The notes beneath the pieces are model-generated. The model had not been told where the DNA came from. It saw only the letters and a list, made by a program, of their open reading frames with translations, and ran no database searches. From positions 1 through 64,000 of IMG/VR virus record IMGVR_UViG_3300035241_000016: a stretch of 64,000 nt of DNA; one strand, 5' to 3'. The translations under genes were made by a program, and so were the position numbers. This document shows, one piece after another, positions 944-27,028 of the stretch (position 1 is its first letter; the number at the start of each line of letters is the position of its first letter). Source of the stretch: a virus (lineage: Duplodnaviria; Heunggongvirae; Uroviricota; Caudoviricetes).

Positions 944-1169
944 TCAAGGTGAGGGTAGTCCGCAAGGGCACCGCACGGCGGATACGGCCGGCAGCGGCCG
1001 ACAGGTCCAGCACCAGGACACCGCGGTCTGCTCAGTGAGTCGTGCCAGCCCTCGCGCCTCGAGGCGGTGACCTCACTTCCACCTGGCCCCGCTCATGTCC
1101 CCCGACGTCCAAAGCAGGGGGTACGTCCTAGGGGGCAGCATGCCCCCTGGACACCTAAATCCGTCCTCC

Positions 1170-1440
1170 CCCGTAATACTCCGTAATCCCGTTTTCGGGG
1201 GGCGTAACCCCGTAGCCTAAAGACGGGGTTCCCCGCGCGCGCGTGTTCATACCGTGCTTCTGAGCTCGCGAAATATTCCGTAATGCCATTACGGTCGCCT
1301 AATACGCTCGCCCGCTATACCGTAATATTACGAAATACATTACGCCCTGATTTTGAGCTCGCTACTCTGCTCGCTTGCGTAATACTGCCCCGATTCGACG
1401 ACGCCCGCTTGCGTAATGGCATTACGGAATATTACGGTCG
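1170..1440. repeat. cluster of CGTAAT(G)/CATTACG half-sites including two perfect palindromes CGTAATGNCATTACG arranged as a ~150-bp inverted repeat
   Basis: ...cccccgtaatactccgtaatcccgttttcggggggcgtaacc... aatattccgtaatgccattacgg ... ccgtaatattacgaaatacattacgcc ... gcgtaatggcattacggaatattacgg; in the divergent intergenic region between the portal-like gene and hicA. Confidence 0.6.
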
Positions 1441-1489: not shown

Positions 1490-1520
1490 ATTGACATTGT
1501 ATGTAGATTCTGGTAAACTG
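1490..1520 (+). promoter_or_regulatory. near-consensus sigma70-type promoter (TTGACA-N17-TAAACT) upstream of hicA; a second TTGACA follows
   Basis: Seen directly: ttgacattgtatgtagattctggtaaact, then GGGGATAGG SD 9 nt before the hicA ATG. Locally AT-rich in a high-GC genome. Confidence 0.5.
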
Positions 1521-1548
1521 TTGACACAGTACGGGGATAGGTGCCAGA

Positions 1549-1767
1549 ATGAACATCCGAGACATTGCCAAAGCAGCCGAGGACCAAGGCTGGACCGTCA
1601 GCCGCAACAAGCAGCAACACTGGGTGTTCCTACCGCCGACCAAGGAGCAAGGCGGGCCGTACGTCTACTCGGGCACGCCGAGTGACTGGCGGAGCATCCG
1701 CAACTTCCTGGCCCATGCTCGTCGCGGCGGCCTGGTATATCCGGTGAACAAGAAGGGATCGAAGTAA
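1549..1767 (+). CDS. hicA: HicA-family mRNA interferase toxin
   Basis: 72 aa; DIAKAAEDQGWTVSRNKQQHWVFLPPTKE matches the HicA/YcfA consensus (xLxKdGWxlvRqkGSHrqfkhP) including the conserved His. Overlaps the next gene (TAATG). Confidence 0.7.
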   Translation: MNIRDIAKAAEDQGWTVSRNKQQHWVFLPPTKEQGGPYVYSGTPSDWRSIRNFLAHARRGGLVYPVNKKGSK

Positions 1768-2243
1768 TGGATTGGGTAGTTACGCTGGAGTTCGACCAGC
1801 TGATCGATGCGGACCGCTGTGACGAACTGCTGGAGCAGCTCCGGCCACAGGCGGCCAGTATTGAGCAGGCGCCAGACCACACTGGCATCATCCTCAGCGT
1901 CGACGGCCTTGAGGGTGATGCCGAGGCAGCGCTGCGGTGCGCCCGGGGTTATGCCGCCGGCATCCCTGGCCGCCTGGTAGGCGCCCAGGTGCAGACGGCC
2001 GCGGCGCTCGAGCGCGAGCTGCAGCAGCCGCAGGTCCCGGAGCTCGGCGGCGTGACCGAGTTCGCGGAGTTGCTGGGCCTGTCGCGGCAGCGCGCCTGGG
2101 GCATCAGCCAGAAGCCGGACTTCCCGGCGCCGATCATGGAGCTCGCCGCGGGCCCGGTGTGGTTGCGCAGCCAGCTGGAACACTGGGCCAACACGCACGA
2201 GCGCAAGCCCGGGCGGCCGCCAAAGGTTGCAGTAGAGGCTTAG
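1767..2243 (+). CDS. hicB: HicB-like antitoxin candidate with C-terminal excisionase/AlpA-type HTH
   Basis: 158 aa, translationally coupled to hicA. C-terminal half (VTEFAELLGLSRQRAWGISQKPDFPAPIMELAAGPVWLRSQLEHWA) is an AlpA/Xis-type HTH. N-terminal fold assignment is tentative. Confidence 0.5.
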   Translation: MDWVVTLEFDQLIDADRCDELLEQLRPQAASIEQAPDHTGIILSVDGLEGDAEAALRCARGYAAGIPGRLVGAQVQTAAALERELQQPQVPELGGVTEFAELLGLSRQRAWGISQKPDFPAPIMELAAGPVWLRSQLEHWANTHERKPGRPPKVAVEA

Positions 2244-4492: not shown

Positions 4493-5002
4493 TCACAGAA
4501 GTGCTCCGCCTGGAGGCGCCACAGCGACATTCATCACCGCTCCCCCCTCCTGCGTGGCTCGCCTAGCCAGCGCGGCACCCTTCGCGATCACCGCGGTTCT
4601 ACCGTGTTGTAGGCACCCCAAGGCCAACGTGGCAACCGCTGCAGGTCCGCCACGGTGGATGGTGTCGGCTACGTCGCGGAGCGCGGCCTCTTCGGTGGCG
4701 TACTCTCCAATGACATTGCCCGTTTGCAGCTCCATTAGTTCATAGGGGCTCGCCCCGCCGACGGCGAGCGGCAGGCCTGGGACGACATCCTCAAGTGGCA
4801 CCTGCCCAGGCATTCGCACAGCCTTTGACCACGGCATGAATGTCACGAGCAAAGCGACATCGTGGGCACGGGCTATCTCCATCAACTGCCTAACGTCATG
4901 GTCCTCTGCCGGGTCAAGGCCAACCATCGCCAACGTCCGAGCAATGTCCGCATCGTTTATTTCACGACGCTTCGTACTCCAGAGCGGGTCATTCGACCTC
5001 AT
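4493..5002 (-). CDS. hypothetical protein
   Basis: 169 aa, overlaps the start region of the upstream gene; moderately protein-like. Confidence 0.35.
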   Translation of the reverse strand: MRSNDPLWSTKRREINDADIARTLAMVGLDPAEDHDVRQLMEIARAHDVALLVTFMPWSKAVRMPGQVPLEDVVPGLPLAVGGASPYELMELQTGNVIGEYATEEAALRDVADTIHRGGPAAVATLALGCLQHGRTAVIAKGAALARRATQEGGAVMNVAVAPPGGALL

Positions 5003-5777
5003 GCTCCTGCCTCCTACTGCGCAACAGGTTCCACGTCGACAGCCTTAAGGCGGCCAGGCAGATGGCCTCGGCGGCAGTTGCAGCAGTGACGTGGGCCACG
5101 GGTTCAGCGCCGTGCGCCACGATGCACTCCCAGCGATATTCGGGCAGTGACGACTCCAAGGTGTACGTCGCCACCTTGACCTGGAACCCACCAGCCACCA
5201 TGTGCTCCACCACCTGCCAGGCAGCCGCCATATCGCTGGAGTACTTTTTCAGCCAATGGCCACACTGGCCATGTGCCCACGTACCGGCACAGCGGCACAC
5301 TGGGCGGCCATTTGAGTAGCCCACGGCGCAGCCCAACATCTTCTCCGCCACCAGCGCGTCCAACTCCGGGCCAGCCTTCATGCTCACGGACGAGGCCACG
5401 GGAATACGCCCGGCGCCGCCGTCGTGGCGCTGCAGGGCCGTCAGGCCTTTGCCGGTGATGACGAACACGGGCTTCTGGGCCTTGCGGGTCTGGCCGTGGC
5501 CGACGGGCACGTCCACCGAACGCGGCGGGAGCTCGCGGATGAGGCCATCCTCCTTCATGCGCTTGAGCACAAAGAAGGTGGTGCTGCCGTCTAGTTCAGA
5601 CAGGGGGTGCGCCGCCTGCAGTTGGTCGATGATCTCGATGCCCGAAAGCGCGGTCCGCGGCCGGGCCAGCACACGCAGAATGGTCCACGACGGGTCACCG
5701 TTGCGGCGGAAGATGCGCTTAAGCTCGGGCTCGGGCACCTCCTCGGCGCGCACGTCCTCGAGATGCGCCTGATTCAT
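4989..5777 (-). CDS. PadR-like winged-HTH fused to phage ABA-sandwich-like domain (paralog 1 of 3)
   Basis: Start re-placed at MNQAHLED (listed ORF has a junk N-terminus). TILRVLARPRTALSGIEIIDQL...FFVLKRMKEDGLIRE is a PadR-type wHTH. C-terminal KAGPELDALVAEKMLG...AAAWQVVEHM...AICLAALRL is shared with 9342..9740 and 50276..50746. Confidence 0.55.
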   Translation of the reverse strand: MNQAHLEDVRAEEVPEPELKRIFRRNGDPSWTILRVLARPRTALSGIEIIDQLQAAHPLSELDGSTTFFVLKRMKEDGLIRELPPRSVDVPVGHGQTRKAQKPVFVITGKGLTALQRHDGGAGRIPVASSVSMKAGPELDALVAEKMLGCAVGYSNGRPVCRCAGTWAHGQCGHWLKKYSSDMAAAWQVVEHMVAGGFQVKVATYTLESSLPEYRWECIVAHGAEPVAHVTAATAAEAICLAALRLSTWNLLRSRRQEHEVE

Positions 5778-5787
5778 CGGATCGCTC

Positions 5788-5988
5788 TCATGCTGGTCGT
5801 CTCCAACGTTCGACCTCTCGGCCGTTGATCGTCCGGGTGGTGGTGATGTAGGCCCACGGCTCCTTCCCACACCGATAGCAGCGGAACTTCGCAGCATAGG
5901 CCGGGAGCTTGGTCGGAACCTCGCGCCAGGCATGGCCGAATTCGCGGCAACGCCTACCCTTCGGGAACCGCAGCCTCCGAAGCCTCAT
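5788..5988 (-). CDS. small zinc-ribbon protein
   Basis: CREFGH...CYRCG; ATGA overlap with the terL stop. Confidence 0.45.
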   Translation of the reverse strand: MRLRRLRFPKGRRCREFGHAWREVPTKLPAYAAKFRCYRCGKEPWAYITTTRTINGREVERWRRPA

Positions 5989-7313
5989 CGCCCGTATCCA
6001 TAGCTAGTGGTGGTCGCTGCCTGCGGGCGCAGCTTATGCCCGCCCATCAAGCCGTAGCGCAGGGCATCGACGGCGTGGTCTTCGCCTTCCGTGTTCAGGT
6101 CCTCCACACGGTGTAGGTCGTGGACCTGCGCCGGCAAGGTGCGGATCAGGTTCACGCACGTGTCGAACACCTGCAGCACCGGTTCCTCTGACAGCGCCTG
6201 ATGCACCCGCTGCCAGCCGGCGAGGCGGTCGTTGTTCGCCGGCACCAGGTACACTCCGCCGGCCTGGTAGGCCTGCGCGATTGACGTGCCATTCGGCTGC
6301 GTGTTCCACATCGAGGGGTCGCCATACGAGACGGCGATACGCTCGTTGCCCGACAGTCCCTGAATGGTCATGGCCTGCTCGGTGTCGCGCAGGCCGGTCT
6401 CGTACAGCTCACGGTACACGAACACCTGCCCCTCGGGCGATCGCGCCAGCCACAGGCAGCACATCGGGGCGAAGTGCCCGAAGTCCACTGCCCGCCAGCG
6501 CAGCCACTCCCGCGGGATGGCGAACGGCCGGCACACGTGGATATCGCGGCGCCACTCTGGAAAGTACTGCCCGGCGAAGACGTCCCAGTCGCCGTCCAGC
6601 ATGGCCCGGCGCTCATGATCGGGCAGCATCTGCAGGCGCGCGCGATAGCCGGGGTCGGCCGCCTCGCCGGCCGGGTTGTCGTCGATCTTGGCGAAATGGA
6701 AGCAGCGGTCGACCGGCACGCCGGCTCCATTGGTGATACCCTTGCCGCGGTCATCCAAGACCGTCCAGGGTTCGCAATCGAAGGTGCCGTGGTTGACGAA
6801 CCGTTGACGCACCCAGGCGTGCCCGATGCCACCCGGGTTGAAGGTGGAGCGGGTGTAGGGCTCCAGCTCGGCCACGCCGCTGCGGTTCTGCATCAGCAGG
6901 TAGGTGTACTGGCTCTCGCTGAACTCCTCGAGCTGGTCGAAACCCATGAACTGGTACTCGTGGCCCTGGTAGGCGAACTTGGATTCCTCGTGCTGGCAGT
7001 GCCGCAGCAGCAGCCGGCCGCCGCTGGGGAAGGTCCACACGTGCTCGTCGCCCTTCCAGGTGGCGCCCAGGCCCGGCAGCCACTGCCAGGCGCGATCGAG
7101 CAGCTCCGAGAGGCGTGGGAAGTCGCGCCGGAAGATGACCCCCCGGTAGCGCGGATGATGGCTGTAGCGCGTTGCCTCCATCAGGAGGCCCAGGCTCTTG
7201 CCGCCGAACTTGGCCCCGCCAAAGCCGCTCTCGTAGGCGGGACATTGGTGCCAGGCCTCCTGCTTGGGCTGCGGCCGGTACACCAGCTGCGGCTTCTCGG
7301 CGACGGCGGCCAT
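5985..7313 (-). CDS. terL: terminase large subunit
   Basis: Walker A GGAKFGGKS, DGDWD, C-terminal nuclease motif EDHAVDALRY; Terminase_6-like. Start placed at MAAVAEKPQLVY (TAATG overlap) rather than the listed 7412. Confidence 0.85.
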   Translation of the reverse strand: MAAVAEKPQLVYRPQPKQEAWHQCPAYESGFGGAKFGGKSLGLLMEATRYSHHPRYRGVIFRRDFPRLSELLDRAWQWLPGLGATWKGDEHVWTFPSGGRLLLRHCQHEESKFAYQGHEYQFMGFDQLEEFSESQYTYLLMQNRSGVAELEPYTRSTFNPGGIGHAWVRQRFVNHGTFDCEPWTVLDDRGKGITNGAGVPVDRCFHFAKIDDNPAGEAADPGYRARLQMLPDHERRAMLDGDWDVFAGQYFPEWRRDIHVCRPFAIPREWLRWRAVDFGHFAPMCCLWLARSPEGQVFVYRELYETGLRDTEQAMTIQGLSGNERIAVSYGDPSMWNTQPNGTSIAQAYQAGGVYLVPANNDRLAGWQRVHQALSEEPVLQVFDTCVNLIRTLPAQVHDLHRVEDLNTEGEDHAVDALRYGLMGGHKLRPQAATTTSYGYGR

Positions 7314-7654
7314 TAGGCTTTGGTGCCACCATCGCGGAGCTCGATGAGTTCGTTCACTTGGGGTTCCTCCGCCGTACCATCGGACGGCTCCGCCGGGCGC
7401 TCCAATAGACACAGGGCAACGGCATTGGGGGCGTAGCGTCGGATGGCCTGCTCACACCGCTCGGCTGACGCGAGTAGCATGTGGAATGCTCGCGTGGTCT
7501 CGTGGTCGTTCACCGTGCGGACCATGTCTAGGTCACGGATCAGTGACACCAATCCACAGGCCGCGTGCAGAACGTTCTCCCGCCGCACGTTCTGTATGGC
7601 GCGAAGCTCGTCGTGGTTGACCACTACCTGAAGCGCCGGCCCCTCAGTGGCCAT
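7313..7654 (-). CDS. hypothetical protein directly upstream of terL
   Basis: 113 aa, coupled to terL (TAATG). No recognisable TerS motifs. Confidence 0.4.
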   Translation of the reverse strand: MATEGPALQVVVNHDELRAIQNVRRENVLHAACGLVSLIRDLDMVRTVNDHETTRAFHMLLASAERCEQAIRRYAPNAVALCLLERPAEPSDGTAEEPQVNELIELRDGGTKA

Positions 7655-9341: not shown

Positions 9342-9740
9342 CTACGCCGGCACCTCGGCACCCACGGCCTTCAGGGCAGCCAAGCAAATGGCAAGCGGCA
9401 CCGTGGGAGCCACGCAACTGTCCTTCGGGTCGCCCGTGAAGTTGACCAGCGCGCCGAGGCCATCCTTGAACGGACGACGCGCCATCTCCCACCACCTGTA
9501 ATGGTTCGTCGCCATGTGCTCCACCACCTGCCACGCCGCCGCGATGTCGGTGCTGTACGCAGGAACGTCGCGACAGTAGTCCGACCAGCGTGGAAAGTCG
9601 GGGCGACATTCCTCGTGTTGGCTGTAATAGCCCAGCGGGTCCAACGTCGCCTTGACCACGCCGTTCACGCCGACCTTGCGCCACACAACGCCCATCACCT
9701 TCTCGGCCACCAGCGCGTCCAGTTCCCGGCCTGCGGTCAT
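9342..9740 (-). CDS. phage ABA-sandwich-like domain protein (paralog 2 of 3)
   Basis: MTAGRELDALVAEKVMGVVWRK...DIAAAWQVVEHM...LAICLAALKAVG. Listed ORF (to 10184) has a low-complexity false extension. Confidence 0.6.
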   Translation of the reverse strand: MTAGRELDALVAEKVMGVVWRKVGVNGVVKATLDPLGYYSQHEECRPDFPRWSDYCRDVPAYSTDIAAAWQVVEHMATNHYRWWEMARRPFKDGLGALVNFTGDPKDSCVAPTVPLAICLAALKAVGAEVPA

Positions 9741-9778
9741 CGTGTCGAAATCTAGGGTTGGCGTGTGGTGCGCCGCCG

Positions 9779-10330
9779 TCACTTCTTCTTCCGTTCGGGC
9801 AGGTAGATGGTGACGCCGGGCCCGTTCAGATCGAGCTGCTTTTTCTCGGTCCACTGGCCCAGTTCCTTTGCGGCCTGCTCCTGCAGCGCGCGTACCTCGC
9901 GGGGGATGATCGGATCCACTTCGTATTCGGTGACGGTCTGGGCGTTCGGCCCCATGCCGATCACCTTCAACGTCTTCACCACCAGGCCTTGGTCGCCGCC
10001 GGGTAACTCCCGCAGTTCCGGGTCTGCAGCACGAGCCGCCAAGACCTTTAGATAGCGCTCCTGCAGGTCGTCCAGGATCCTGACGCGCTTGTGTCGCTGG
10101 GCGATGGCCAGATGGACGATGCTCCGCTCCATCTCCTCGAGGATGGCTGCCTTCTTCGCCTTGAAGTCCGGGTGGAGTTTCCACGTCGCCAGTGTGCGCC
10201 GGTTAACGCCACACTCGGCCGCGATGTCCTCATCACTAAGCCGGTCTTCGGCAAGCAGTTGGGCGGCCCTCAGACGTTCCTCTGTCCACTCGAATGCCGT
10301 GGAGTTTTGTGATCCGTGGCCACCGCTCAT
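9779..10330 (-). CDS. terS: terminase small subunit candidate (HTH)
   Basis: Start at MSGGHGS preceded by AAGGAGAGAAGGA. N-terminal HTH WTEERLRAAQLLAEDRLSDEDIAAECGVNRRTLATWKLHPDFKAK typical of TerS; ~183 aa with basic C-terminus. Confidence 0.55.
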   Translation of the reverse strand: MSGGHGSQNSTAFEWTEERLRAAQLLAEDRLSDEDIAAECGVNRRTLATWKLHPDFKAKKAAILEEMERSIVHLAIAQRHKRVRILDDLQERYLKVLAARAADPELRELPGGDQGLVVKTLKVIGMGPNAQTVTEYEVDPIIPREVRALQEQAAKELGQWTEKKQLDLNGPGVTIYLPERKKK

Positions 10331-10725
10331 TCCTTCTCTCCTTGGTTCGCGGTCCTTGTGGCTTTGTACCCCCAGCCGGTCAGGGGCTCCGAACCTCGGC
10401 GCACCTCGGGTAGCGCCTCTGGATAGCAGGAAGAACAGGCGCAGGTTCCTTTCATGGACCGGTCCGCCGGCGGCGTCACAAGCCCACCCTTCGCACCGTG
10501 CGCCGCGTTCCGCCAAGGAGCACTCGCGGCCACCAGCCACGCACTTAGCCCGGCGAAGACCATTGCGTCCGGCACCCAACTCGGGATGTGATCCGCAAGC
10601 AACGCAACCCAGCCGATTCGGTCCTTTAGAATGACGGCGACCACCAGCATGGGCATCCCCACATTCGTCAAGAGGGAGTACTGCCTCTCCAGCATGGTCG
10701 CCTTCTGATCAGTCTTCATAGCCAT
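10327..10725 (-). CDS. membrane protein (2 TM)
   Basis: MAMKTDQKATMLERQYSLLTNVGMPMLVVAVILKDRIGWVALLADHIPSWVPDAMVFAGLSAWLVAASAPW; AAAGGAG SD; ATGA overlap with terS. Confidence 0.5.
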   Translation of the reverse strand: MAMKTDQKATMLERQYSLLTNVGMPMLVVAVILKDRIGWVALLADHIPSWVPDAMVFAGLSAWLVAASAPWRNAAHGAKGGLVTPPADRSMKGTCACSSCYPEALPEVRRGSEPLTGWGYKATRTANQGEKE

Positions 10726-14132: not shown

Positions 14133-14665
14133 GCCGCCAACATCTCCGCCGTGATGGCTTCGCCGCGTTCCCAGCGATTGGCGAAGTCCGCCCAACCAGC
14201 CTCGAGCGTCCAAGAAGCATCACGCTGCAGGCGCGTGAGTAGGTCCGCCAACGTACTCGGCACCATCGCGACCTCGTCCCAGCACCAGTTGCCCACCCAG
14301 GTCGAGTAGCCTTTGATGGCGAAGGCACCGCAGCGGTCGAACACCACCCGGAAGTCCTGCCGGTCGATGTGGCCAGGTACGCCGTCGGGCTCGTCATCGC
14401 TATCGCTTACGGGTCCGTGCAATTCCAAACACGGCTCCAGGTGTTCGCTGGCCGTGTAGACCTTCAGCGCTCGGATCCAGCCGTCGGGGAAGCCGTTGCG
14501 CGGGTTATTGCTCGCCAGGGCCAGGCACGGGTAGGGGTAGGGAGAGGCACTCACGTGGACGAGTGAGGTTCTCAAGAGTTTGGTACGGCCACCACCATTC
14601 GGCGCAGTGGCCTTCGCTGGATTTGCGACGCGACCCGGAGTCACCGTTCGGCTCCCTCCAGGCAC
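14129..14665 (-). CDS. hypothetical protein abutting the tRNA 3' end (true start probably internal)
   Basis: C-terminal 120 aa is protein-like (...DRQDFRVVFDRCGAFAIKGYSTWVGNWCWDEVAMVPSTLADLLTRL...). Listed start lies 7 nt from the tRNA, so is unlikely. Confidence 0.35.
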   Translation of the reverse strand: MPGGSRTVTPGRVANPAKATAPNGGGRTKLLRTSLVHVSASPYPYPCLALASNNPRNGFPDGWIRALKVYTASEHLEPCLELHGPVSDSDDEPDGVPGHIDRQDFRVVFDRCGAFAIKGYSTWVGNWCWDEVAMVPSTLADLLTRLQRDASWTLEAGWADFANRWERGEAITAEMLAA

Positions 14666-14672
14666 TGTGCAG

Positions 14673-14744
14673 CTGGCGAGGCAGGATTCGAACCTGCAAC
14701 CGTGCGCTTAACAGGCGCCTGCTCCACCGTTGAGCTACTCGCCA
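14673..14744 (-). tRNA. tRNA-Asn (anticodon GTT)
   Basis: Reverse complement reads TGGCGAGTAGCTCAACGGTGGAGCAGGCGCCTGTTAAGCGCACGGTTGCAGGTTCGAATCCTGCCTCGCCAG. 7-bp acceptor stem, D stem GCTC/GAGC, anticodon loop CTGTTAA (U33, GTT, A37), T arm GCAGG-TTCGAAT-CCTGC; no encoded CCA. Confidence 0.8.
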
Positions 14745-14900
14745 AAACGTGATCCTGGGACACGCCGAGGGTCAGCAGCCGCTCCATGCCCAGCACGATC
14801 GCCTGCAGCGCCTCCCGCTCGGCCTCAGCTCTGTGCATCGCCGCCCGGAACTGCGGCATGGTGTCGGCGATGAGCGCCAGGAGCGTCGGGGTCACGCCTT

Positions 14901-15485
14901 TTACCACGCCGTCGGCGGCGAACCCGGCTGATGGGCATTCGCTGGCCGCTCCGTATCGAGCACCGATCCGGTGCTGTAGGACGAATAGTCACCGATGATT
15001 CGAAACGTCCGCACTACCGCGAAGTCGAAGAGATAGACCTCCGGATCGGCTAGCCCGTATAGCCGCAGGTCAATGGTTCCCGCCGCCGATTTCGCGATGG
15101 CTTCTGGCGTGCAATCATCGGCGCCATGTGTGGAGATGTACTGCACCACCGCATGACGGGCGATGCTCATGACGACGTCCTCCGCGTGGTGGAGGGTCTG
15201 GTACAGCTGCGCAATGTTGGTGATGGAGTAGCTGACGGATCCGGAGAACGTGATGGTGACGCTATCCCGGTTCGTGATGGTCTGGCGCCCCAGACTCGCC
15301 GTCCTCTTCCGAACGCTCTGCACATACACGACATCGATGAATGGCAGCTTCCAATGTGGTCCGGCTTCCAGGACTTTCACGTACTTGCCAAGGCGCACAC
15401 GAACCGCCTGCTGCCAAGGACTGACGACGATCCAGATCACCAGACTGCCGACAAATCGCTGGATGATGTTCAGGATTTCGTTCAT
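14901..15485 (-). CDS. SPFH/band-7 (stomatin/prohibitin-like) domain membrane protein
   Basis: N-terminal TM FVGSLVIWIVV followed by SPWQQAVRVRLGKYVKVLEAGPHWKLPFIDVVYVQSVRKRT...TNRDSVTITF, the classic SPFH core. Locally lower GC. Confidence 0.7.
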   Translation of the reverse strand: MNEILNIIQRFVGSLVIWIVVSPWQQAVRVRLGKYVKVLEAGPHWKLPFIDVVYVQSVRKRTASLGRQTITNRDSVTITFSGSVSYSITNIAQLYQTLHHAEDVVMSIARHAVVQYISTHGADDCTPEAIAKSAAGTIDLRLYGLADPEVYLFDFAVVRTFRIIGDYSSYSTGSVLDTERPANAHQPGSPPTAW

Positions 15486-15874
15486 TCGCTGAACCCTTCA
15501 GTGGGCAGAATTGAAACATTTGTTCTAGTCGCTGAGAAAAAAAGAGAGGCCGGCCGCTGGACCAATCGAGCGCACGTCCAGGCGCCCTCCTGGCCGTCGA
15601 TGACCTGCTCGGCGAAGAAGTTGGCCGCCTGCGCCGGGTCGTATGGGTTGTCGTACCCCGCTCGCCGGAAGGCTGCAGCCTTGCCGTAGTCGCTGATCTG
15701 ATACAGGCCCCGGTTGGGGCCGTTCGTAGCAAGCGGGTTGAACGAGCTTTCGCATCCGGCAACCTCGAGCATGAACCCAGCATGCACACCATGTGCGAGC
15801 GCCACCGCAATGATGAGCTGCTTGATAGCGTCGATTGTCACGCTGGCAATCCTTCGGACTCGCGCGGTTCCCAC
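15482..15874 (-). CDS. lysozyme-like / SLT-family transglycosylase domain protein
   Basis: LEVAGCESSFNPLATNGPNRGLYQISDYG matches the E-S...GL(M/Y)Q SLT motif. True start is probably a GTG near 15841. Confidence 0.5.
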   Translation of the reverse strand: MGTARVRRIASVTIDAIKQLIIAVALAHGVHAGFMLEVAGCESSFNPLATNGPNRGLYQISDYGKAAAFRRAGYDNPYDPAQAANFFAEQVIDGQEGAWTCARLVQRPASLFFSATRTNVSILPTEGFSE

Positions 15875-16017
15875 CAGGCGATCTGGATAAGGTGGTCGAG
15901 CCCGGCCTTGAAGACCGTGAGCTTCTTGCCAGTCGGGCCCATGATTTCCAGCATGTCGCCGGTATCGTCAGTGACGACCCAATCCTTCAAGAACCTCGGC
16001 AGTCGCTTATCCGCCAT
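15838..16017 (-). CDS. hypothetical small protein
   Basis: MADKRLPRFLKDWVVTDDTGDMLEIMGPTGKKLTVFKAGLDHLIQIAWWEP. Confidence 0.4.
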   Translation of the reverse strand: MADKRLPRFLKDWVVTDDTGDMLEIMGPTGKKLTVFKAGLDHLIQIAWWEPRESEGLPA

Positions 16018-16228
16018 CCGTTTCCACCACCTTTTCGCGCTGTTCCTCCGGGGACAGCCAGCCAGCCAATTGGAGCCATTGACGGCTTTCATAGAAGGTG
16101 CAGCCACAAGAGGACACATGTGACGGAGGCCCGGATGGGCTGCCAGTCCACGACTTCAATTCGGCCCGACAACGTGCGCCCTCATGGTCATGGCCGCAGA
16201 TGGGGCACTCCACTTCAGCGCGGACCAT
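16007..16228 (-). CDS. zinc-ribbon small protein
   Basis: MVRAEVECPICGHDHEGARCRAELKSW... Confidence 0.4.
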   Translation of the reverse strand: MVRAEVECPICGHDHEGARCRAELKSWTGSPSGPPSHVSSCGCTFYESRQWLQLAGWLSPEEQREKVVETDGG

Positions 16229-16877
16229 CGGCGTTCGCCGAATCTCCGGAATAGCGTTGATCGGCGAGACGCGGCGACAGAAACCACTTGATGTCGCTCC
16301 ACCAGCGCCGCCAGCGGCGGTACTCCCGCGAGGCATAGCCGACAACGATGAACCCTTCCGGACTAATGGGCTGTGCCTTGCCTCGGGTCGGCCCAATACG
16401 GTGTTTGTAGTAGTCGTCGCGCTCCCAATTCAGATAGGTGGGTCGCAGGTCGTTGAACTGCCGGCCGTCCAGCAGCGCCATGTTTTGCATGTCAGCCAGC
16501 GTTTCTCGGAGGAATCCTCGCTCGCTCAGGTGCTTGTCATATTGGTTGTCGTTGAAGATGCCGACGACGATGGTTTTCGCTGGCCGGATCTGCCCTTTAT
16601 GGCTCCGCACGACGAGGGTGCGAAACGGCCGCTCAGGCTCGCCACCATCATCGGCCCGGTTACGGCACAGCGAACATCGCCACGTTGTCCAGCGGATGCC
16701 ATTTGCGGCAACCCGATCAATCACCAACTCCGCGTTGGGGTGGACCTTGCAATGCACGCCGGTCACGGCTGCGTATATCCTCCGAAACAGGTCGGGCACT
16801 TGGGCAGGTGCGGCAAGAGGCGTTCCTCCTCCGTCCCATTGGTCATTGGTATGGCCGTCCCGCACGTGGTTTTCCAT
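16215..16877 (-). CDS. hypothetical protein
   Basis: Start placed at MENHVRDGH; contains a Rossmann-like beta-alpha stretch TLVVRSHKGQIRPAKTIVVGIFNDN. Function unknown. Confidence 0.4.
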   Translation of the reverse strand: MENHVRDGHTNDQWDGGGTPLAAPAQVPDLFRRIYAAVTGVHCKVHPNAELVIDRVAANGIRWTTWRCSLCRNRADDGGEPERPFRTLVVRSHKGQIRPAKTIVVGIFNDNQYDKHLSERGFLRETLADMQNMALLDGRQFNDLRPTYLNWERDDYYKHRIGPTRGKAQPISPEGFIVVGYASREYRRWRRWWSDIKWFLSPRLADQRYSGDSANADGPR

Positions 16878-16958
16878 GCCCAATGGGTTTCGCTCCAGCC
16901 ATGTTTGGCCAGGTGAATATTCCGTCCGACCCCTGGCTCCCCATCCCACAAATACCGG

Positions 16959-17174
16959 TTACTCGGCATTCGCCACCTCGAACGTCGGCTCAGCCGTCGA
17001 TGTCTTGCATGGCTTGCCGAAGATGAGGTGCGTGGGATCATCGTTCGTGCCCCTGATCACCCGCACCACACGTATGGGGAGCAGTTCACCCTCAGCTTCG
17101 GCAACCTGACACTTCGAGTCCTTAGCGACAGGGTTGCCGATGATAAGCCTGTGGGGCTGGTCGGTAGTCATCAT
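16959..17174 (-). CDS. hypothetical small protein
   Basis: 71 aa; ATGATGA coupling with the upstream gene. Confidence 0.4.
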   Translation of the reverse strand: MMTTDQPHRLIIGNPVAKDSKCQVAEAEGELLPIRVVRVIRGTNDDPTHLIFGKPCKTSTAEPTFEVANAE

Positions 17175-17389
17175 GTGTTCCGCACGTTGGCGGACCGCAG
17201 CAGCAGACCGTCCAAGTACTCGAGCTCGTCGTACATAGCAGCCAACTGCCAGGCGTTAATTTCGCCGTCCTCAAACCAGTGAATAATCGTGTTTATTCGC
17301 CGGTTGCTTCGGCCCTCAAGAGACTCGTCCTCTGGCAAGTCCTCCCAGGCAACATGGCCGAGCGGCACTAAACGCTTGTCCTTAGCCAT
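17171..17389 (-). CDS. hypothetical small acidic protein
   Basis: 72 aa; GGAGTAAGG SD; protein-like composition. Confidence 0.5.
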   Translation of the reverse strand: MAKDKRLVPLGHVAWEDLPEDESLEGRSNRRINTIIHWFEDGEINAWQLAAMYDELEYLDGLLLRSANVRNT

Positions 17390-18134
17390 GCGCCTTACTC
17401 CGTTCTCGCGCAGTTAAGCGGAGGGATGGCAGGCTCAGGACCCCAAAGGCATCCGCTCCCATCCAGTCGCGAGCAAAGCCTTCGACCCGTGCCCCATTCA
17501 GCATCGTGCTGTTGCGATGGTGGTAATGACCATGCACGATGAGCTTTGGACTGACGGCATCAACCACTCGACGGACCTGGCGCCGGTTGCCTAGCGACTC
17601 AGGCCACCTATCTTTGTCGCCTGCCGTTGACGGCCCAACGACGCCGGCGGCGCCATCCGGTGCGTCATGACACACCAGCACATCGGTAGGGCCGCCTTCG
17701 CTGGCCTTCCTAACCTCGTCGTCAGTGATGGTTTCCTCGGACCACCACGACTGGCCTTCGACGCGGTTCGGCTTGTCAACGCTGTAGGCCCCGCCGAGAG
17801 CAAGAAATCGCACGCCGTCACAGGCCCACCGATAACCGCGGGGGAGATACGTCACACGCGGCCGAATTTCGACCGCTCGGCTGCAGTCGTACCGCGTTCG
17901 CAGCAACGCGTGATTCTCGTGATTGCCGTCTACCCAAAAGAGGAAGAGGCCGTACCGCTCCATCAATTCGCTAGCGGCCTTCAGGTAGTAACACCCATCG
18001 TCAAGGTGCTCCCAGTAGCCAAAGTCACCAAGCTGGAGAATGGCCGTGCATTTCTGCTCGTCAGCGACCTGGGCAAGGAACCGGAGCCAGTCCGCTTGGC
18101 CGTGCGTGTCGCCGGCCAGAAGCACTTTCGTCAT
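17382..18134 (-). CDS. Ser/Thr protein phosphatase (calcineurin-like metallophosphoesterase)
   Basis: Motifs LLAGDTHGQ, GDFGYW, VDGNHENH, GHYHH. Start placed at MTKVLLAGD. Confidence 0.75.
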   Translation of the reverse strand: MTKVLLAGDTHGQADWLRFLAQVADEQKCTAILQLGDFGYWEHLDDGCYYLKAASELMERYGLFLFWVDGNHENHALLRTRYDCSRAVEIRPRVTYLPRGYRWACDGVRFLALGGAYSVDKPNRVEGQSWWSEETITDDEVRKASEGGPTDVLVCHDAPDGAAGVVGPSTAGDKDRWPESLGNRRQVRRVVDAVSPKLIVHGHYHHRNSTMLNGARVEGFARDWMGADAFGVLSLPSLRLTARERSKAHG

Positions 18135-18159
18135 GACGCTGACCCTTCGCTCAGTTCCA

Positions 18160-19938
18160 TTAGCGGCTCGCGCTTTCTCGTGGAATGCCGGCCGGGAATA
18201 GGAGCTCCGTTGCCGCAACCGCGCCACGCACGGGGTAGTCAATCAGGCCGAGGCTTCGGAGGCCTCCCAGGTTATTCCCGTAGCCGCTGGACGTCGCCGA
18301 CTGCCCAACCCGCCGCGCGAGGTCATCCCGTGTCATGTGAAGTGGATACGCGTCGACCAACGCCCGGACGATGTTGGCGCGCGGCGCCGGCAACTTGGCG
18401 TACCAGGCATCGTGCAGGGCCTCGAGCGACCGGAAGGCGCCACGCATGGCGGCCACCTGGCGTCCGGCCTCGGTCAGGGCCACCATCCCACCGCGGGGGT
18501 AGTCGACCAGGCCGTTCGTCCGCAGCCGGCCAAGATTGTTCCCGAATCCCGACGATCTCGGCGATTGGTCCGCGAATACGGCGACGTTGCTCCGGGCGAT
18601 CTCCGGCAAGCCCAGAGCTTCGAACTCGGCGAGAGCATCCAGGATGGCTTGCTGGGGTCGGGTTATGTCGCCGGCTGCAATGCTGGCTGGTTGGAGTATC
18701 CTCGGATCCGCGGGTTCTGGCGTCTTTACACCACGCGGTAATCCGTCATGCGCAGCCTGCACAACCGCCGGCGGCGTGTACGAGGGTCGCTGGGCTGAGC
18801 TGAGAGCGGTGGCTACTCGCTCGGCCGCGGTGTTCAGACTGGCGGCAGCCTCCTGGGCTAGCTGCGCCGCTCGCTGCAGGGCTTCGACGTCAGCCGCGCC
18901 GACGATCGGCACCTCAATCCGTTCGACGACGGGCTCCGCCGCTGGCCGGCTCGCTAGTTGGCGCTCAAGCTCGGCAATCCGCTGGCGAAGTTCCTTCGGG
19001 TCGTCCGCCTTCGCCTTGTCGACCACGGACGCCAACTCAGCCGAGAGTGCCGTCAGATCGACGTCGGCTAGCGTTCGCGGCTCAACACGCGTCTCGCCAG
19101 GCTTCGGTGTCGCGGAGCTGTCGAAGGTCTCCCGGCGAGCCACCTGCACGCGCTGAAAGATGCCCTCGTCATCGGGCCAGCCCGGCGACCAGACCCAGGC
19201 CGTACCCACTGGCAGCGATGGCAGCGAATCCATCAACTCGCGGCGCTGCTCCGGCGTGCCATGAACGTCAATCCAATCGTTGAGCGCCGCCAGGTCCTGC
19301 GGCGCGATCGTCCGAAGTGCGATGAGGATCTGGATCTGGGTGAGGACGTTCTTATTAAGAACTGCCGCGCGTTGCGTGGCCATGAGGCAGCCAATTCCAC
19401 GCTGGCCACCGCGGCGGACGATGTCCTCGCAGGCGCCAAGCATCCGCTCCTCACCCTTCTGCGGACGCTGAGGCGCGACAGCATCAGCCTCGTCGATGAT
19501 GAGCATCATCGGCGTGCGGAACTGCTCCTTGGCCTTCAGCCGATACAGCGTCTCCAGGAAGATGGCCATGAACGTGGCCAGCTCGTGCTTGCGAAACATG
19601 GACAGGTCGACCAGCGCCGTCACCCGCTGCTCCACCAGGAACCTGGCCACGGCCTCGCCGGCGTTCACGTCCAGCGGGATGTCGGCGTGTTCACCACCCA
19701 GAATGAGGATTGGTAGGCCAGGCGACTTGCCGTCGGCACTGGAGCGCAGACCATACCAATCGCCTTTGGGATCGACGACAACGACTTGTAGGCCGGCTCC
19801 GAGCATTTGCTCGGTCAGCTTGGCTGCGCAATAGCTCTTACCGGCCCGGCGCTTTGCAAGCACGCCAATGGCCTGCGTCACGGTTTCGAGAGGGAGTTCC
19901 AGCTCGCTGGCAATTCGCAGCACTCTCATCGCTACCAA
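18160..19938 (-). CDS. P-loop NTPase (HerA/FtsK-like; Walker A AKRRAGKS, Walker B LIIDEAD) with two C-terminal wHTH-like repeats
   Basis: 592 aa; VLAKRRAGKSY...VVVVDPKGDWYGL...MMLIIDEADAV. C-terminal repeats SSGFGNNLGRLRTNGLVDYPRGG and SSGYGNNLGGLRSLGLIDYPVRG. Confidence 0.6.
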   Translation of the reverse strand: MVAMRVLRIASELELPLETVTQAIGVLAKRRAGKSYCAAKLTEQMLGAGLQVVVVDPKGDWYGLRSSADGKSPGLPILILGGEHADIPLDVNAGEAVARFLVEQRVTALVDLSMFRKHELATFMAIFLETLYRLKAKEQFRTPMMLIIDEADAVAPQRPQKGEERMLGACEDIVRRGGQRGIGCLMATQRAAVLNKNVLTQIQILIALRTIAPQDLAALNDWIDVHGTPEQRRELMDSLPSLPVGTAWVWSPGWPDDEGIFQRVQVARRETFDSSATPKPGETRVEPRTLADVDLTALSAELASVVDKAKADDPKELRQRIAELERQLASRPAAEPVVERIEVPIVGAADVEALQRAAQLAQEAAASLNTAAERVATALSSAQRPSYTPPAVVQAAHDGLPRGVKTPEPADPRILQPASIAAGDITRPQQAILDALAEFEALGLPEIARSNVAVFADQSPRSSGFGNNLGRLRTNGLVDYPRGGMVALTEAGRQVAAMRGAFRSLEALHDAWYAKLPAPRANIVRALVDAYPLHMTRDDLARRVGQSATSSGYGNNLGGLRSLGLIDYPVRGAVAATELLFPAGIPRESASR

Positions 19939-20796: not shown

Positions 20797-22434
20797 CTAC
20801 GCTTCCCTCCGCCAAATGATAGGACCGGCCGCGGCCTGCTGCTCCAGCCGGAGGCGCTCGCCTGGCGTGCGGATTTCGAACTCCCAGCGCAGGCTGCGGC
20901 CATCAGTGACGATGTGGTCGACCAGCGTGCGTACCACTTCGCGCCGCTGTTCGAAGGTGGCGGAGGCGGCCCGATCGCGGATGATGCCCACCACGCTGGC
21001 AGCGCTGGCGATCTGCAGTTCCGAGAGGCGGCGGTGGCCCAACTTCTCCACCAACTCGGCGCGGCGGGCCAGCCAGCGGTCTTCCTCCAACTGGACCTTC
21101 CGGAACTCGGCCTCGGTGACGGCCAGGGTGTACAGCTCCGGCAGCTTGCGCCGGCCGTCCAGAACGACGTCGCGCTCTCGCGCGAGGCGCGGCAGGGCGC
21201 GCGTGTCGATCTCCTCGAGCTCGCGCTCGAGCCCCTCGTAGTAGGCAGCGCCCTTCTCCCGCAGCCGTGAGAGCTCGGCCAGCACCAGCTCGGGCTGCTC
21301 GAGCAGCTCCCGCACCTTTGCCCACACCGGCTCGTCCAGCCGGTAGCTGGCCACGCTCGTACTGGTGCACCTGGGCCCCGGGTGATAGACGCTGCGTAGC
21401 TTGCCGTTACAGCGGTAGAAGGTGTAGGTCACGCCCTTCTTCTTCCCGTCGCGGCTGGCGCCGTGCACAGCACGGCCGCAGACCGAGCAGCGGAGAATGC
21501 CGCTCAGCAGGAACTCGTGCTTGCTGTTGCGCGCCGCGAAGCGCTTGTTGTCGGCGATGCGACGCTGGACTTCGTCCCACAGCTCATCAGTGATGAGTCG
21601 CGGGCAGCCGAGCCGGATCCAATCCTCCTGCGGCCGCAGGCGCTCAGTCTTGCGTGGCTTGCCTCCGACCTTCTTCCGATAGCCCGGCTCGGCGGCGCGG
21701 TAGCGGCGCTGCACCAACTCGCCCTTCAGGGCTGGATTGCGGAGCATGCGGGCGAGCGTGGCCGTGCGCCACTTTCCGCCCCTGGTAGTGGCCACGCCGC
21801 TGTCGATCAGCCAGTAGACGATGGACTGCAAACTGTGGCCAGCGAGCACGCGCTCGACGATGCTGCGCATGGTGGCGGCCTCGGTCTCGCGCAGAACGTA
21901 CTTGCGCTCCTGCTTGTCGTAGGCCATCCAGAAGAACTCGCCTGGGTTGACGATGCGTCCGGCCCGGGCATGCTCGAGGCGGCCGCGGGCGGTGCGCTCG
22001 GCGATCTGCATGCGCTCCACCTGAGCCAACACACCCTGCAGGGCATCGAAGGCAAATCCCATCGGCGTGTCGGTGTTGGCGAAGGGCTGCCCGTTGGGGC
22101 CGGCCAGCACGACGCCGGCGGCGCGCAGTTCCTTGTCGAGGAAGAGCTTGTCGGCCAGGTCCCGGCTGATGCGATCAGGATCGACGCAGCGCACCTGGTC
22201 CACGCCGCGGGCGCGGACCAGCTCACGCAGCCGGGACAGGGCTGGCCGCTCGAGCAGCGCACCGGACCAGCCGGGATCCTCGAACACGGGGGCGTCCATG
22301 TCCTCATCGCGGACCAGCTCGTCGTCAGGGCCCAGGCCGGCCAGAAGGATGGCGCGCTGCACCTCGACGGTCTGGCCGTCCGTGGAAACCCGAGCATAGA
22401 GCGCCACCCGCATGCCGTTAGTCCGGCTCACCAT
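20797..22434 (-). CDS. large serine recombinase (integrase)
   Basis: MRVALYARVSTDGQ catalytic N-terminus, recombinase domain, Cys-containing zinc-ribbon region and long coiled-coil C-terminus; 545 aa. Confidence 0.85.
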   Translation of the reverse strand: MVSRTNGMRVALYARVSTDGQTVEVQRAILLAGLGPDDELVRDEDMDAPVFEDPGWSGALLERPALSRLRELVRARGVDQVRCVDPDRISRDLADKLFLDKELRAAGVVLAGPNGQPFANTDTPMGFAFDALQGVLAQVERMQIAERTARGRLEHARAGRIVNPGEFFWMAYDKQERKYVLRETEAATMRSIVERVLAGHSLQSIVYWLIDSGVATTRGGKWRTATLARMLRNPALKGELVQRRYRAAEPGYRKKVGGKPRKTERLRPQEDWIRLGCPRLITDELWDEVQRRIADNKRFAARNSKHEFLLSGILRCSVCGRAVHGASRDGKKKGVTYTFYRCNGKLRSVYHPGPRCTSTSVASYRLDEPVWAKVRELLEQPELVLAELSRLREKGAAYYEGLERELEEIDTRALPRLARERDVVLDGRRKLPELYTLAVTEAEFRKVQLEEDRWLARRAELVEKLGHRRLSELQIASAASVVGIIRDRAASATFEQRREVVRTLVDHIVTDGRSLRWEFEIRTPGERLRLEQQAAAGPIIWRREA

Positions 22435-25573: not shown

Positions 25574-26554
25574 TCAGGCCGCCACCGCCGGGAATTCTTC
25601 CCGCACCCGGCCGTCTAGTTCGGGGTGCTTGGCGGGCCGTAGACCACTAGATTGCTTGTAGAAGAAGGGGATCCCCCAGATGTGGCAGTCGTGGCTAATC
25701 TGCCGCGCCCACTCCTCGCTCATCGGCCTGTAGCCAGGGCCGGACTCCCCACCGACGACTACCCAGTCGAGACCACCGAGCTCCCCTGGGTTGAGGAAAC
25801 TTCTCATGAACCGTCCGAAGTTCAGCGGCCCCAGGAGCGGCTCCCCGCTCACCCAACGCACCGCGGCCCTGGTCTGCGCGACGTAGTTGAAGCGCCACAG
25901 GTAGTCCTGGGACTCGATCGTCGTGCCGCACCAGACGTGGGGCAGCACCGGCGAAGCCAGCGCCGTCAGGGTCGCCTGGTAGTGCTCCGGCAACCGCTCG
26001 GCAATGTTGTTGACGCCGGTGTCGAGCATTCCCGGCAGCAGCAGATCGATGGCCGCGCGCTTCAGCCTCTGAGTGTCGAGCCCGTTGATGTAGTCGCGCA
26101 TCCGTTTCGGGCGCTTCGTGAGCAGTTGGAACGTGTGGTGCGGCGCCAGCGCCATCATGCCGAAGACCTTGTCGAGCCAAGCATCCGGAACCCAATCGCC
26201 GAACAGATCCGTCATTGAGCAGACGAAGATGCGCCGCGGCCGCGTCCAGTGCAGCGGCTGCAGGAGTGTCGGCTCATGCAACTGCAGCGGCTCCTTACCG
26301 GCGTAGACCGCGCCAGCCAGGCTGACCGTCTGCAGCCCCTCGGTGGTGTATGGGTGCCCGCCGTGGTTCACGTGCAGCGTCGAGGCGTAGCAGTTGTCGC
26401 ACGCTGGCGAGACCTTCTCACACCCCCACAGGACCATGTTTCGCGTGACGACTTTCCCGTCACCCGCGGTGGTCGTGTACTCAGTGCCCGGCCGCGCTGA
26501 GCGGATCGGGTTCAGCGTGGCATCGGTCCACGCAATGCCGCTTCTATCGCCCAT
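25574..26554 (-). CDS. phage Gp37/Gp68 family protein (DUF5131)
   Basis: MGDRSGIAWTDATLNP...WGCEKVSPACDNCYA...WTRPRRIFVCSMTDLFGDWVPDAWLDKVFGMMALAPHHTFQLLTKRPKRM matches the family signature. Confidence 0.75.
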   Translation of the reverse strand: MGDRSGIAWTDATLNPIRSARPGTEYTTTAGDGKVVTRNMVLWGCEKVSPACDNCYASTLHVNHGGHPYTTEGLQTVSLAGAVYAGKEPLQLHEPTLLQPLHWTRPRRIFVCSMTDLFGDWVPDAWLDKVFGMMALAPHHTFQLLTKRPKRMRDYINGLDTQRLKRAAIDLLLPGMLDTGVNNIAERLPEHYQATLTALASPVLPHVWCGTTIESQDYLWRFNYVAQTRAAVRWVSGEPLLGPLNFGRFMRSFLNPGELGGLDWVVVGGESGPGYRPMSEEWARQISHDCHIWGIPFFYKQSSGLRPAKHPELDGRVREEFPAVAA

Positions 26555-27028
26555 TTAGACCGTCCTCACGTCCAAACCGTGCTTGTCCTTGAGCCATTTG
26601 CGTTTTGTGGTCCAGTCCTTCGTCGCCATGCCTTTGGCGTCCTCCAGCACGACGCTGGAATCCGGCAGTTCGTACCGGAAGTCGATGAGCATCCGCACGG
26701 CGCGCATGCCCGGCTGAGCCTCAAATAGGACGTACTCGACCTGTTCCTCCAGCTCAGCTATCTCGCCGGCCAGTTCCATCAGTCGGAGCTCACGCCACCG
26801 GCGACACTCACGCAGGCTGTCATGGGGCCTGAATTGGAGCCGCTCCGAGCGGTCGCATGCAGCCACGAACCCCATGCATCCATCGCCCGCGCTGCAGCCT
26901 GCTTTCCCGTGATCGGCAGCGGCGTGGCTGCAGCGACAGGCGCACTTCACGGCGCCGAACTTCGAGCGCCGCGGTGCCTCAGCCAGCCCCATGCGGACGG
27001 CTTCCTTCGCCGACAGGAACACCGTCAC
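26555..27028 (-). CDS. DUF1064-like (NinX-like, putative nuclease-fold) protein
   Basis: C-terminal IDFRYELPDSSVVLEDAKGMATKDWTTKRKWLKDKHG resembles the DUF1064 YxxDFxY...EDxKG...K signature; N-terminal Cys cluster. Confidence 0.4.
   Translation of the reverse strand: MTVFLSAKEAVRMGLAEAPRRSKFGAVKCACRCSHAAADHGKAGCSAGDGCMGFVAACDRSERLQFRPHDSLRECRRWRELRLMELAGEIAELEEQVEYVLFEAQPGMRAVRMLIDFRYELPDSSVVLEDAKGMATKDWTTKRKWLKDKHGLDVRTV

Follow-up and report, generated by a model that had tools for sequence, protein, structure and literature searches.

In bacteria, replicative helicases with a DnaB-like RecA fold normally rely on distinct initiator and loader proteins to be put on DNA; self-loading is known from the helicases of superfamily 3 (SF3), namely those of SV40 and the papillomaviruses, P4, pRN1, and SaPIs, the pathogenicity islands of Staphylococcus aureus. 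Here, we analyze a 64,000-nucleotide stretch of DNA of a Caudoviricetes virus (IMG/VR record IMGVR_UViG_3300035241_000016, positions 1 to 64,000; hereafter the window), in which the hexamer CGTAAT is clustered at two distant sites, one of them (site 2) lying directly past the gene of a DnaB/RepA-like ATPase and the other (site 1) close to the left end of the window. We propose, with a probability that we put at roughly 0.7, that CGTAAT(R) is the iteron of the replication initiator of a temperate phage, that this initiator is the AAA_25 ATPase, which would carry a winged helix-turn-helix (wHTH) domain, and that site 2 is an origin-type element and site 1 a second binding region.

Several described systems come close to this arrangement. 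The SaPI Rep protein is at once helicase and initiator, reads penta- or hexanucleotide iterons with its C-terminal winged helix and uses no separate loader, and the SaPI ori presents 6–12 iterons immediately downstream of the rep open reading frame (ORF), in oppositely oriented sets around a central melting region (PMC9371898). The locus studied here shares with it an ATPase body with a (predicted) C-terminal winged helix, iterons right past the ORF in two opposed sets, and a specificity that is private to each element. However, SaPI Rep belongs to SF3 (AAA+), when the core of the present protein has a RecA fold, matches AAA_25 and finds its nearest structures in DnaB and RSF1010 RepA; a short hairpin, clamped by G/C and with AT in its loop, stands at the center of the array instead of a long AT-rich tract; a second, distant cluster is present in this phage; and no sequence relationship is detectable. 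In the Bacillus phage SPP1, gp38 binds at two places, oriL being part of the replication module and oriR of a moron segment that splits the late genes; it was proposed that the protein bound at oriR arrests forks and sets off the change to concatemer synthesis (PMC6316719, PMC3485210). Likewise, two distant regions of the window carry the same repeats, one at the putative initiator gene and the other in non-coding DNA within a segment of small genes that interrupts the late genes, but gp38, a separate origin binder, depends on gp39 as loader and on gp40 as helicase, oriL is located within gene 38 and not past it, and the SPP1 repeats are direct and stand beside an AT-rich unwinding element.

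In the satellite phage P4, the same short repeat is found in two separated cis sites, ori and crr, both required for replication; they lie 4.5 kb apart, neither abuts the stop codon of the gene, and crr is a duplicated 120-bp unit. The P4 alpha protein has a C-terminal winged-helix origin-binding domain (PMC2777425, PDB 1ka8). The present locus is thus similar to P4 in joining a putative helicase and a C-terminal winged helix in one polypeptide and in having the same short repeat at two separated sites, except that alpha combines a primase with an SF3 helicase. In P1, a second iteron cluster (incA) away from the origin (oriR) binds the same initiator and controls replication, which recalls the second cluster of the window away from the initiator-linked site; but the P1 RepA is not a helicase, and incA takes part in controlling the copy number of a plasmid prophage; in contrast, the phage studied here has an integrase. 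Finally, the origin of pRN1 lies just downstream of the gene for the replication protein ORF904, depends on a stem-loop and is served by a protein with a C-terminal winged helix (PMC4234260). An origin-type element with a stem-loop 3' of the gene and a C-terminal winged helix in the protein are found here as well, although pRN1 is an archaeal plasmid, ORF904 is a prim-pol with an SF3 helicase, and iterons were not identified there. An initiator-helicase with an iteron origin 3' of its gene and a distant second binding region are therefore already known; what differs here is the class of the helicase.

Two clusters of one hexamer

Over both strands of the window, CGTAAT has 24 matches when 8.7 are expected from 100 dinucleotide-preserving shuffles (standard deviation 2.7, maximum 17), none of which reaches the observed count. 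Fourteen of these matches are packed into two stretches of 265 and 74 bp, with 11 copies at site 1 (1172–1436) and 3 at site 2 (27642–27715), and the remaining 10 are isolated singles, at background expectation. The initial annotation of this DNA, made by a model from the letters alone, had reported clusters of this motif and of its palindromes at these two places; the excess is indeed far above chance, and the background frequency elsewhere disposes of the objection that the motif might be just as common in the rest of the window. The 14 clustered copies, turned into a weight matrix, gave the consensus (C/G)CGTAAT(G/A), and a scan of the window with this matrix did not reveal a third cluster; copies with one mismatch (CGAAAT, CGGAAT, CGTAAC) increase the count at both sites. 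These AT-rich clusters stand in DNA with a GC content of 64.7% (a figure that replaces the earlier estimate of about 66%), nearly all genes of which lie on the minus strand.

At site 2, the first copy overlaps the TAA stop codon of the helicase-like gene, in line with the earlier placement of this cluster immediately 3' of that gene. The inverted pair said to surround a GC hairpin exists as well (27642–27689), with a spacer of 34 nt, not 33. The AT-rich part of site 2 amounts to the 5-nt loop within this G/C hairpin, and hairpins of this type (CCCCCTTATAGGGGG: C-run, AT loop, G-run) are encountered within the window at site 2 only.

Site 1 is larger and starts with a direct pair of copies (1172 and 1182, 10-bp spacing), followed by G/C hairpins and then by palindromic pairs. 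The palindrome CGTAATG-N1-CATTACG was found twice, as announced (1279–1293 and 1412–1426), and so was CGTAATATTACG (1321–1332). The two 25-nt arms of the site are 96% complementary, with 118 bp between them, and a one-mismatch CGTAAC sits at 1203 between the two small G/C hairpins, a stretch that folds barely better than shuffles (z −1.7). The GC content decreases to 42% over 1300–1359 and to 48% over 1323–1522, the latter being the lowest-GC 200 bp of the whole window, and the former stretch is, by its composition, a candidate unwinding region. Inverted arms set around such low-GC DNA are reminiscent of an origin. The element GAAATATTCCG, which had been described as common to both sites, was recovered at 1270 and 27693, and because site 1 has the identical hexamer, the identical flanks and the identical 25-nt composite, one protein should bind both sites.

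The helicase-like protein and the arrays past its gene

In the AlphaFold model of the full-length helicase-like protein (pLDDT 88.7, pTM 0.81), a RecA-fold core is followed by three helices and a beta-hairpin over residues 374–422 (helices 374–384, 389–396, and 400–409, strands 413–416 and 419–422; pLDDT about 88–94), so that the C-terminal tail is, as modeled, a wHTH. Several homologues match MarR_2, HTH_5, HTH_23, IclR, and Crp-type models in this region, and no paralogue of the wHTH was found elsewhere in the window. A single-sequence AlphaFold model of the last 75 residues (pLDDT 64), which conflicted with the full-length model, was discarded. As for the core, the top Foldseek match is DnaB (4esv, E-value 1e-11), with a TM-score of only 0.42–0.46, followed by RecA, Rad51, and RadA; its sequence profile relates it to RadA/Rad51, RecA, and RSF1010 RepA, and the invariant K152 and the YLDWE motif supply the Walker A and B elements expected of a DnaB/RepA-type helicase, akin to superfamily 4 (SF4). 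No SF3 (AAA+) core related to that of SaPI Rep, P4 alpha, or D5 was found in this protein, whose core is a RecA-fold AAA_25 ATPase. By analogy, it may work like SaPI Rep without being a homologue of SaPI Rep, P4 alpha, or the pRN1 protein. In one relative (L004), the ORF in the place that matches the 129-residue ORF upstream of the helicase-like gene carries a DnaB N-terminal domain, and the latter ORF may encode a partner of the helicase.

The window comes from a phage assembled out of a JGI metagenome, and an identical helicase-like protein is encoded on an 83-kb contig. The family of this protein is large (about 3,350 clusters at 50% identity, E-value ≤ 1e-30), most of its members align end to end, and some bear N-terminal primase or prim-pol fusions. 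All the examples found come from metagenomes or metagenome-assembled genomes and none from cultured phages or plasmids: GenBank phages gave a single weak and partial match, and PLSDB plasmids gave none. IMG/VR protein searches with the helicase and with the protein encoded to the left of site 1 returned no close relatives, a DNA search of GenBank phages with positions 900–2300 returned nothing useful, and no description of the family was found in the literature.

To compare the surroundings of the gene, we considered the DNA of relatives over ±10 kb around it; beyond the closest relatives, 88 more loci were gathered with the family profile and analyzed by script, and 57 non-redundant loci entered the ranking of repeats. 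The three closest relatives whose DNA could be used each have a cluster of their own in this place, directly past the stop codon. In L001 (72% identity, from farmland soil), CGTAAC/GTTACG copies surround a C7-TTTA-G7 hairpin; L002 and L003 (51% identity) have four CGTAAC/GTTACG copies, the first of them on the stop codon as in the window; and in L004 and L005 (48% identity), a G7-loop-C7 hairpin is surrounded by eleven GTAAT/ATTAC copies (TGTAATTACA). More generally, the 100–250 bp from the stop codon hold 5–12 copies of one hexamer, in both orientations, in about 26 loci; these copies start at most a few bases away from the stop codon, and their hexamer is nearly missing from the rest of each locus. 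The hexamers of the different lineages are GGGACA, GCGTAC, CATACA, GTGTTA, CGCAAC, GTACAA, GTTGCA, CTTGCA, GTTTCA, GTCGAC, TGGACA, GCAACA, CTGTCC, CGTAGC, GTGACA, GTTACA, and GGGAAC. Compared with all other 300-nt windows of the locus, the 300 nt past the stop codon present the top hexamer-repeat count in 22 of the 57 non-redundant loci. Where the protein shares at least 32% identity with the query, this holds for 17 of 22 loci, and the position of the array is kept in relatives down to about 27–30% identity. By contrast, the gene downstream of the array is not conserved, the sole constant neighbor being the ATPase gene, sometimes with a short ORF upstream of it.

The common layout, observed in the window and in 14 relatives, consists of copies in one orientation, a central dyad, and copies in the opposite orientation. 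A dyad made of a C-run, a short T/A loop (TATAA, TTTA, or TTAG), and a G-run is present in 15 of 27 arrays, as against 11% of control windows, and the array of L047 forms a perfect 25-bp stem (z −11). A pattern scan of IMG/VR for CGTAATGNCATTACGG retrieved 37 loci with isolated palindromes, on unrelated and mostly low-GC contigs with no helicase homologue, which are chance matches. As a separate observation, the marine locus L089, which has no 3' array, contains at 351–650 an unrelated stretch with 8 GTAATA copies, 9 kb upstream of its helicase homologue.

The repeats and the protein's C-terminal end appear to change together. The last 80 residues are only 42–62% identical where the core is 75–90% identical (51% vs. 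90% between L028 and L033, 62% vs. 90% between L025 and L029, and 57% vs. 75% between the window and L001). At aligned copies, the CGTAAT of the window corresponds to CGTAAC in L001, inverted copy included, and aligned array positions read GTTGCA in L028, CTTGCA in L033, and GTTTCA in L038. In the presumed recognition helix, WRTI accompanies TGGACA in L025 and WSTI accompanies TCGACA in L029, when L047 and L062, two diverged copies on one contig, both keep the helix NIRNQIQR and CGTAGC arrays. The hexamer thus appears to co-vary with the C-terminal domain, in what is a correlation only. An iteron or origin, with the helicase wHTH as the binder, was among the options of the initial annotation, and it is this option that the conserved position past the stop codon, the concerted change of the hexamer and the fast divergence of the C-terminal wHTH, the fastest-diverging part of the protein, support.

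Two loci deserve a separate mention. L047 and L062 are borne by a 131-kb contig (Ga0307503_10000029), about 75 kb apart, their helicase genes being 77% identical and each followed by a 10–11-copy CGTAGC array, and they may be two related elements that share an origin specificity in one genome. In L002, the ORF located just past the array (9649–10194) starts with a stand-alone copy of the wHTH tail of the helicase (ADLEVPPANIRTALNRHKDLFMRWPD vs. EDLDIPADRIRVELNRHKEVFMRQPD in the helicase) and could encode a competitor or a regulator that acts at the same iterons.

According to the mechanism that we envision, the C-terminal wHTH of the helicase-like protein would read CGTAAT(R), and site 2 would be the origin-type element of the helicase family, with oppositely oriented iterons flanking the C5-TATAA-G5 hairpin. 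On each side, protein molecules would occupy the inverted iterons and oligomerize; the bound oligomers would then melt the central dyad and self-load, dispensing with a separate loader, as is thought for SaPI Rep. Site 1, 26 kb away from site 2, would be a larger second binding region for the initiator, most likely, judging from the systems described above, a second origin or a replication-control site, be it an enhancer similar to the crr of P4 or a fork barrier similar to the oriR of SPP1 that takes part in a theta-to-concatemer switch.

A bolder formulation, to which we would give slightly less than even odds, is that the window provides the first recognizable example of a family, large and so far unstudied, of helicase-initiators that would load themselves and have a core of RecA/DnaB-like (SF4-type) rather than SF3 kind, in which each member would possess a fast-evolving winged helix and a private hexamer array around a cruciform (C-run, AT loop, G-run) directly past its gene, and in which the initiator of this phage would also command an array in the late region, firing as a second origin or stopping forks. 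If this were the case, the principle of self-loading would extend to a RecA-fold helicase that carries its own origin reader, in a widespread phage family, and high-GC soil and groundwater bacteria would harbor a minimal replicon made of one protein and one site. The private and concertedly changing hexamers would then be natural matched protein–DNA pairs for studying the evolution of specificity and incompatibility, a simple rule for origin finding in metagenomic phage contigs would be to search directly past this helicase gene, and with the late-region array, the SPP1-type idea that a bound initiator blocks forks or serves as a second origin could be put to the test in a phage unrelated to SPP1.

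Alternative readings and points against an initiator

Operators are the first alternative to be considered: a phage regulator would bind the palindromes and thereby control late or hicAB-like promoters at site 1 and termination or read-through at site 2. Palindromic units do suit dimeric helix-turn-helix (HTH) proteins, and several HTH proteins are encoded within the window, the candidates being a HicB-like HTH protein, the CI-like repressor, the LexA-type wHTH protein, and a PadR-like protein (4989–5933). Moreover, site 1 lies in a divergent intergenic region beside three promoter-like sites, of which the rightward ones point to a hicA-like ORF and the leftward one would transcribe across site 1 toward a late ORF, and the repeats of site 2 enclose a hairpin where a gene ends. 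We nevertheless regard this alternative as unlikely. The repeats of site 1 end 55 bp short of the first −35 box (1491) and overlap no predicted promoter; at site 2, neither a promoter nor a canonical terminator was predicted by the scanner, and no T-run follows the hairpin; at least 11 sites would be many for an operator; and relatives keep the array past the helicase gene while their neighboring genes differ, with no hicAB or CI gene seen nearby (ParB-, HicAB-, and CI-type genes are not recorded near the arrays of L002, a 17.7-kb contig, and L004, of 21 kb). The HicB-type HTH protein and the CI-like repressor, which had been named as possible binders, are disfavored by the arrays that relatives keep without those genes and by the distance from the cluster to the predicted hicAB −35 box.

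The names initially given to the neighbors of site 1 deserve caution in this regard. The site was said to fill the divergent intergenic region between a portal-like gene and a hicAB promoter, of which the divergent intergenic position stands and the labels are not confirmed. For the "portal-like" ORF (2–943), neither Pfam nor PHROG gave a hit, and 5.8 billion proteins included no detectable homologue; Pfam gave no hit for the "hicA" ORF either, neither small ORF has a HicA or HicB Pfam match even at an E-value ≤ 10, and the sole match of the "hicB" ORF is a weak DNA-binding or excisionase-type HTH. With such ORFs and with repeats located outside the promoter, a HicAB operator was rejected. The only match to ORF 2–943 is an 80%-identical stretch covering 16% of it in an unrelated 218-residue protein (P0121).

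It is still less probable, in our opinion, that the repeats serve the ParB-like protein of the window (ParB_N and HTH_ParB domains) as parS-like sites, for centromere function or for spreading, despite the fact that this protein is encoded 4.7 kb upstream of site 2, that the sites of ParB proteins are typically multi-copy palindromes, and that the contig of one relative also encodes a ParB-type protein. Indeed, the arrays of L002 and L004 do not co-occur with a recorded ParB match, no ParA was found, and the large serine integrase and the gene resembling that of a recombination directionality factor imply that the phage probably integrates and needs no partition system. In addition, the ParB-like gene has DNA-modification genes (PAPS-reductase-like, Dam) for neighbors, as is typical of ParB-like proteins without a role in partition, and the motif tracks the C-terminus of the helicase and not ParB.

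The last alternative, that site 1 is a packaging signal (a pac or cos accessory read by the small terminase) whose likeness to site 2 is incidental, or that the two sites are the repeats of an att-type insertion junction, is very improbable: terminase recognition regions often contain repeated short motifs and site 1 falls among packaging and head genes, with the large terminase gene 4.5 kb away, but it is not adjacent to the small-terminase-like gene, and the same hexamer, flanks, and 25-nt composite recur at a helicase-linked site that is conserved for reasons unrelated to packaging, and as for att repeats, which the initial annotation had itself envisaged as a refutation, the sites share only a motif unit of about 25 nt, with no extended homology and with a best local alignment (25–27 nt, score 27–28) no better than the best of 200 shuffles, which argues against such repeats, and site 1 and site 2 lie 19 kb and 5 kb, respectively, from the serine integrase gene.

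The proposal that CGTAAT(R) is the iteron of the helicase-like protein has its own weak points. The protein encoded by the window has no Pfam HTH hit, RecA, Rad51, and KaiC score nearly as high as DnaB, and helicase activity is assumed from the fold alone. Site 2 holds 3 exact copies (5 when one mismatch is allowed), below most relatives, and its central hairpin could be merely, or could double as, a terminator of the helicase operon that lacks a U-tract. A branch of low-GC, mostly marine loci (e.g., L044–L093; about 27–31% identical) is free of arrays, and its members may have their origin elsewhere or use the protein in another role. Regarding site 1, its low GC content is partly due to the AT-rich repeats themselves, no second cluster of the cognate hexamer was found in any relative within ±10 kb of the helicase gene, and its neighboring ORF is an orphan. 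Lastly, the GC-skew analysis suggested earlier as a means of recognizing an origin gave no such signal, without an inflection at either site, and it speaks neither for nor against any of the readings. The cumulative skew declines evenly over the first 31 kb or so and then stays level, with genes on the minus strand throughout and with its change of slope at 31–32 kb, which is at neither site.

Feature coordinates and other genes of the window

Table 1. Positions of the repeats, hairpins, and genes considered in this study (n/a, strand not applicable)
Feature	Position	Strand	Remarks
Orphan late ORF ("portal-like" in the initial annotation)	2–943	−	Left of site 1; runs off the left edge of the window
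Strong hairpin GGGGGCA-loop-TGCCCCC	1125–1152		Just outside site 1; −13 kcal/mol, z −5.0
Site 1	1172–1436	n/a	11 exact CGTAAT(R) and one-mismatch copies
Two small G/C hairpins	1188–1231		CCCGTTTTCGGG; AACCCCGT-loop-ACGGGGTT; between direct iteron pair and left arm
Left 25-nt arm of site 1	1269–1293	n/a	CGAAATATTCCGTAATGCCATTACG; abutting palindrome and 3-bp-spaced palindrome
118-bp core between arms	1294–1411		Holds CGTAATATTACG (1321–1332), CATTACG (1338–1344), CGTAAT (1378–1383)
Right 25-nt arm of site 1	1412–1436	n/a	CGTAATGGCATTACGGAATATTACG; inverted copy of left arm
Three promoter-like sites	1491–1550		3 found vs. 0.3 expected; 1491–1519 and 1521–1550 rightward, 1524 to 1496 leftward
Two small ORFs ("hicA" and "hicB" in the initial annotation)	1549–2243	+	Right of site 1
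Large terminase	5985–7412	−	
Small-terminase-like HTH protein	9779–10579	−	
Large serine recombinase	20797–22434	−	
DUF5131 protein	25574–26554	−	
DUF1064 protein	26555–27028	−	
Site 2	27642–27715	−	Minus-strand order: CGTAAT (on stop codon), CGGAAT/ATTTCG, CGTAAT, hairpin, ATTACG
Central C5-TTATA-G5 (= C5-TATAA-G5) hairpin	27650–27682		Stem lengthened by flanking inverted iterons; −15.8 kcal/mol, z −3.7
RecA-fold AAA_25 ATPase, DnaB/RepA-like, 426 residues	27711–28991	−	Proposed initiator-helicase
Region encoding the predicted C-terminal wHTH, residues 374–426	27714–27872	−	Proposed iteron reader
129-residue ORF	28993–29382	−	Abuts helicase start codon; similarly placed ORF in relatives
PAPS-reductase-like protein	29393–30592	−	
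ParB-like protein (ParB_N and HTH_ParB)	32382–33230	−	
Recombination-directionality-factor-like protein	42267–43871	−	
LexA-type wHTH protein	46123–46584	−	
CI-like HTH repressor	46901–47530	+	Divergent from next gene

About 5 kb of small ORFs on both strands, together with site 1, separate the large terminase gene from the next long late ORF. Between the large terminase gene and the small-terminase-like gene, ORF 7955–8770 matches the transposase PHROG phrog_4285 (E-value 1.5e-38) and may be an insertion in the packaging module. The proteins encoded at 4989–5933 and 50276–51004 each have a Phage_ABA_S sandwich domain, and the N-terminal region of the former resembles, by eye, a PadR-type winged helix.

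The regions 29393–38153 and 51157–51981 gather an unusually dense set of DNA-modification genes, with the PAPS-reductase-like protein beside the ParB-like one, a Dam-type N6-adenine methylase, a C5-cytosine methylase, a DUF1643 protein, an ASCH-domain protein, and a Mom-family protein. Rfam and tRNA scans of the window returned a single match, a tRNA-Asn (GTT) gene on the minus strand (14672–14744), and no known RNA family at either site; this gene overlaps a candidate ORF (14641–14907) of a rough screen of ORFs based on GC content at third codon positions. At 14901–19938, a Band_7/SPFH protein is grouped with a calcineurin-like phosphoesterase and with a HerA/DUF87-like ATPase that weakly matches Mrr_N; the three may form a defense or counter-defense cassette.

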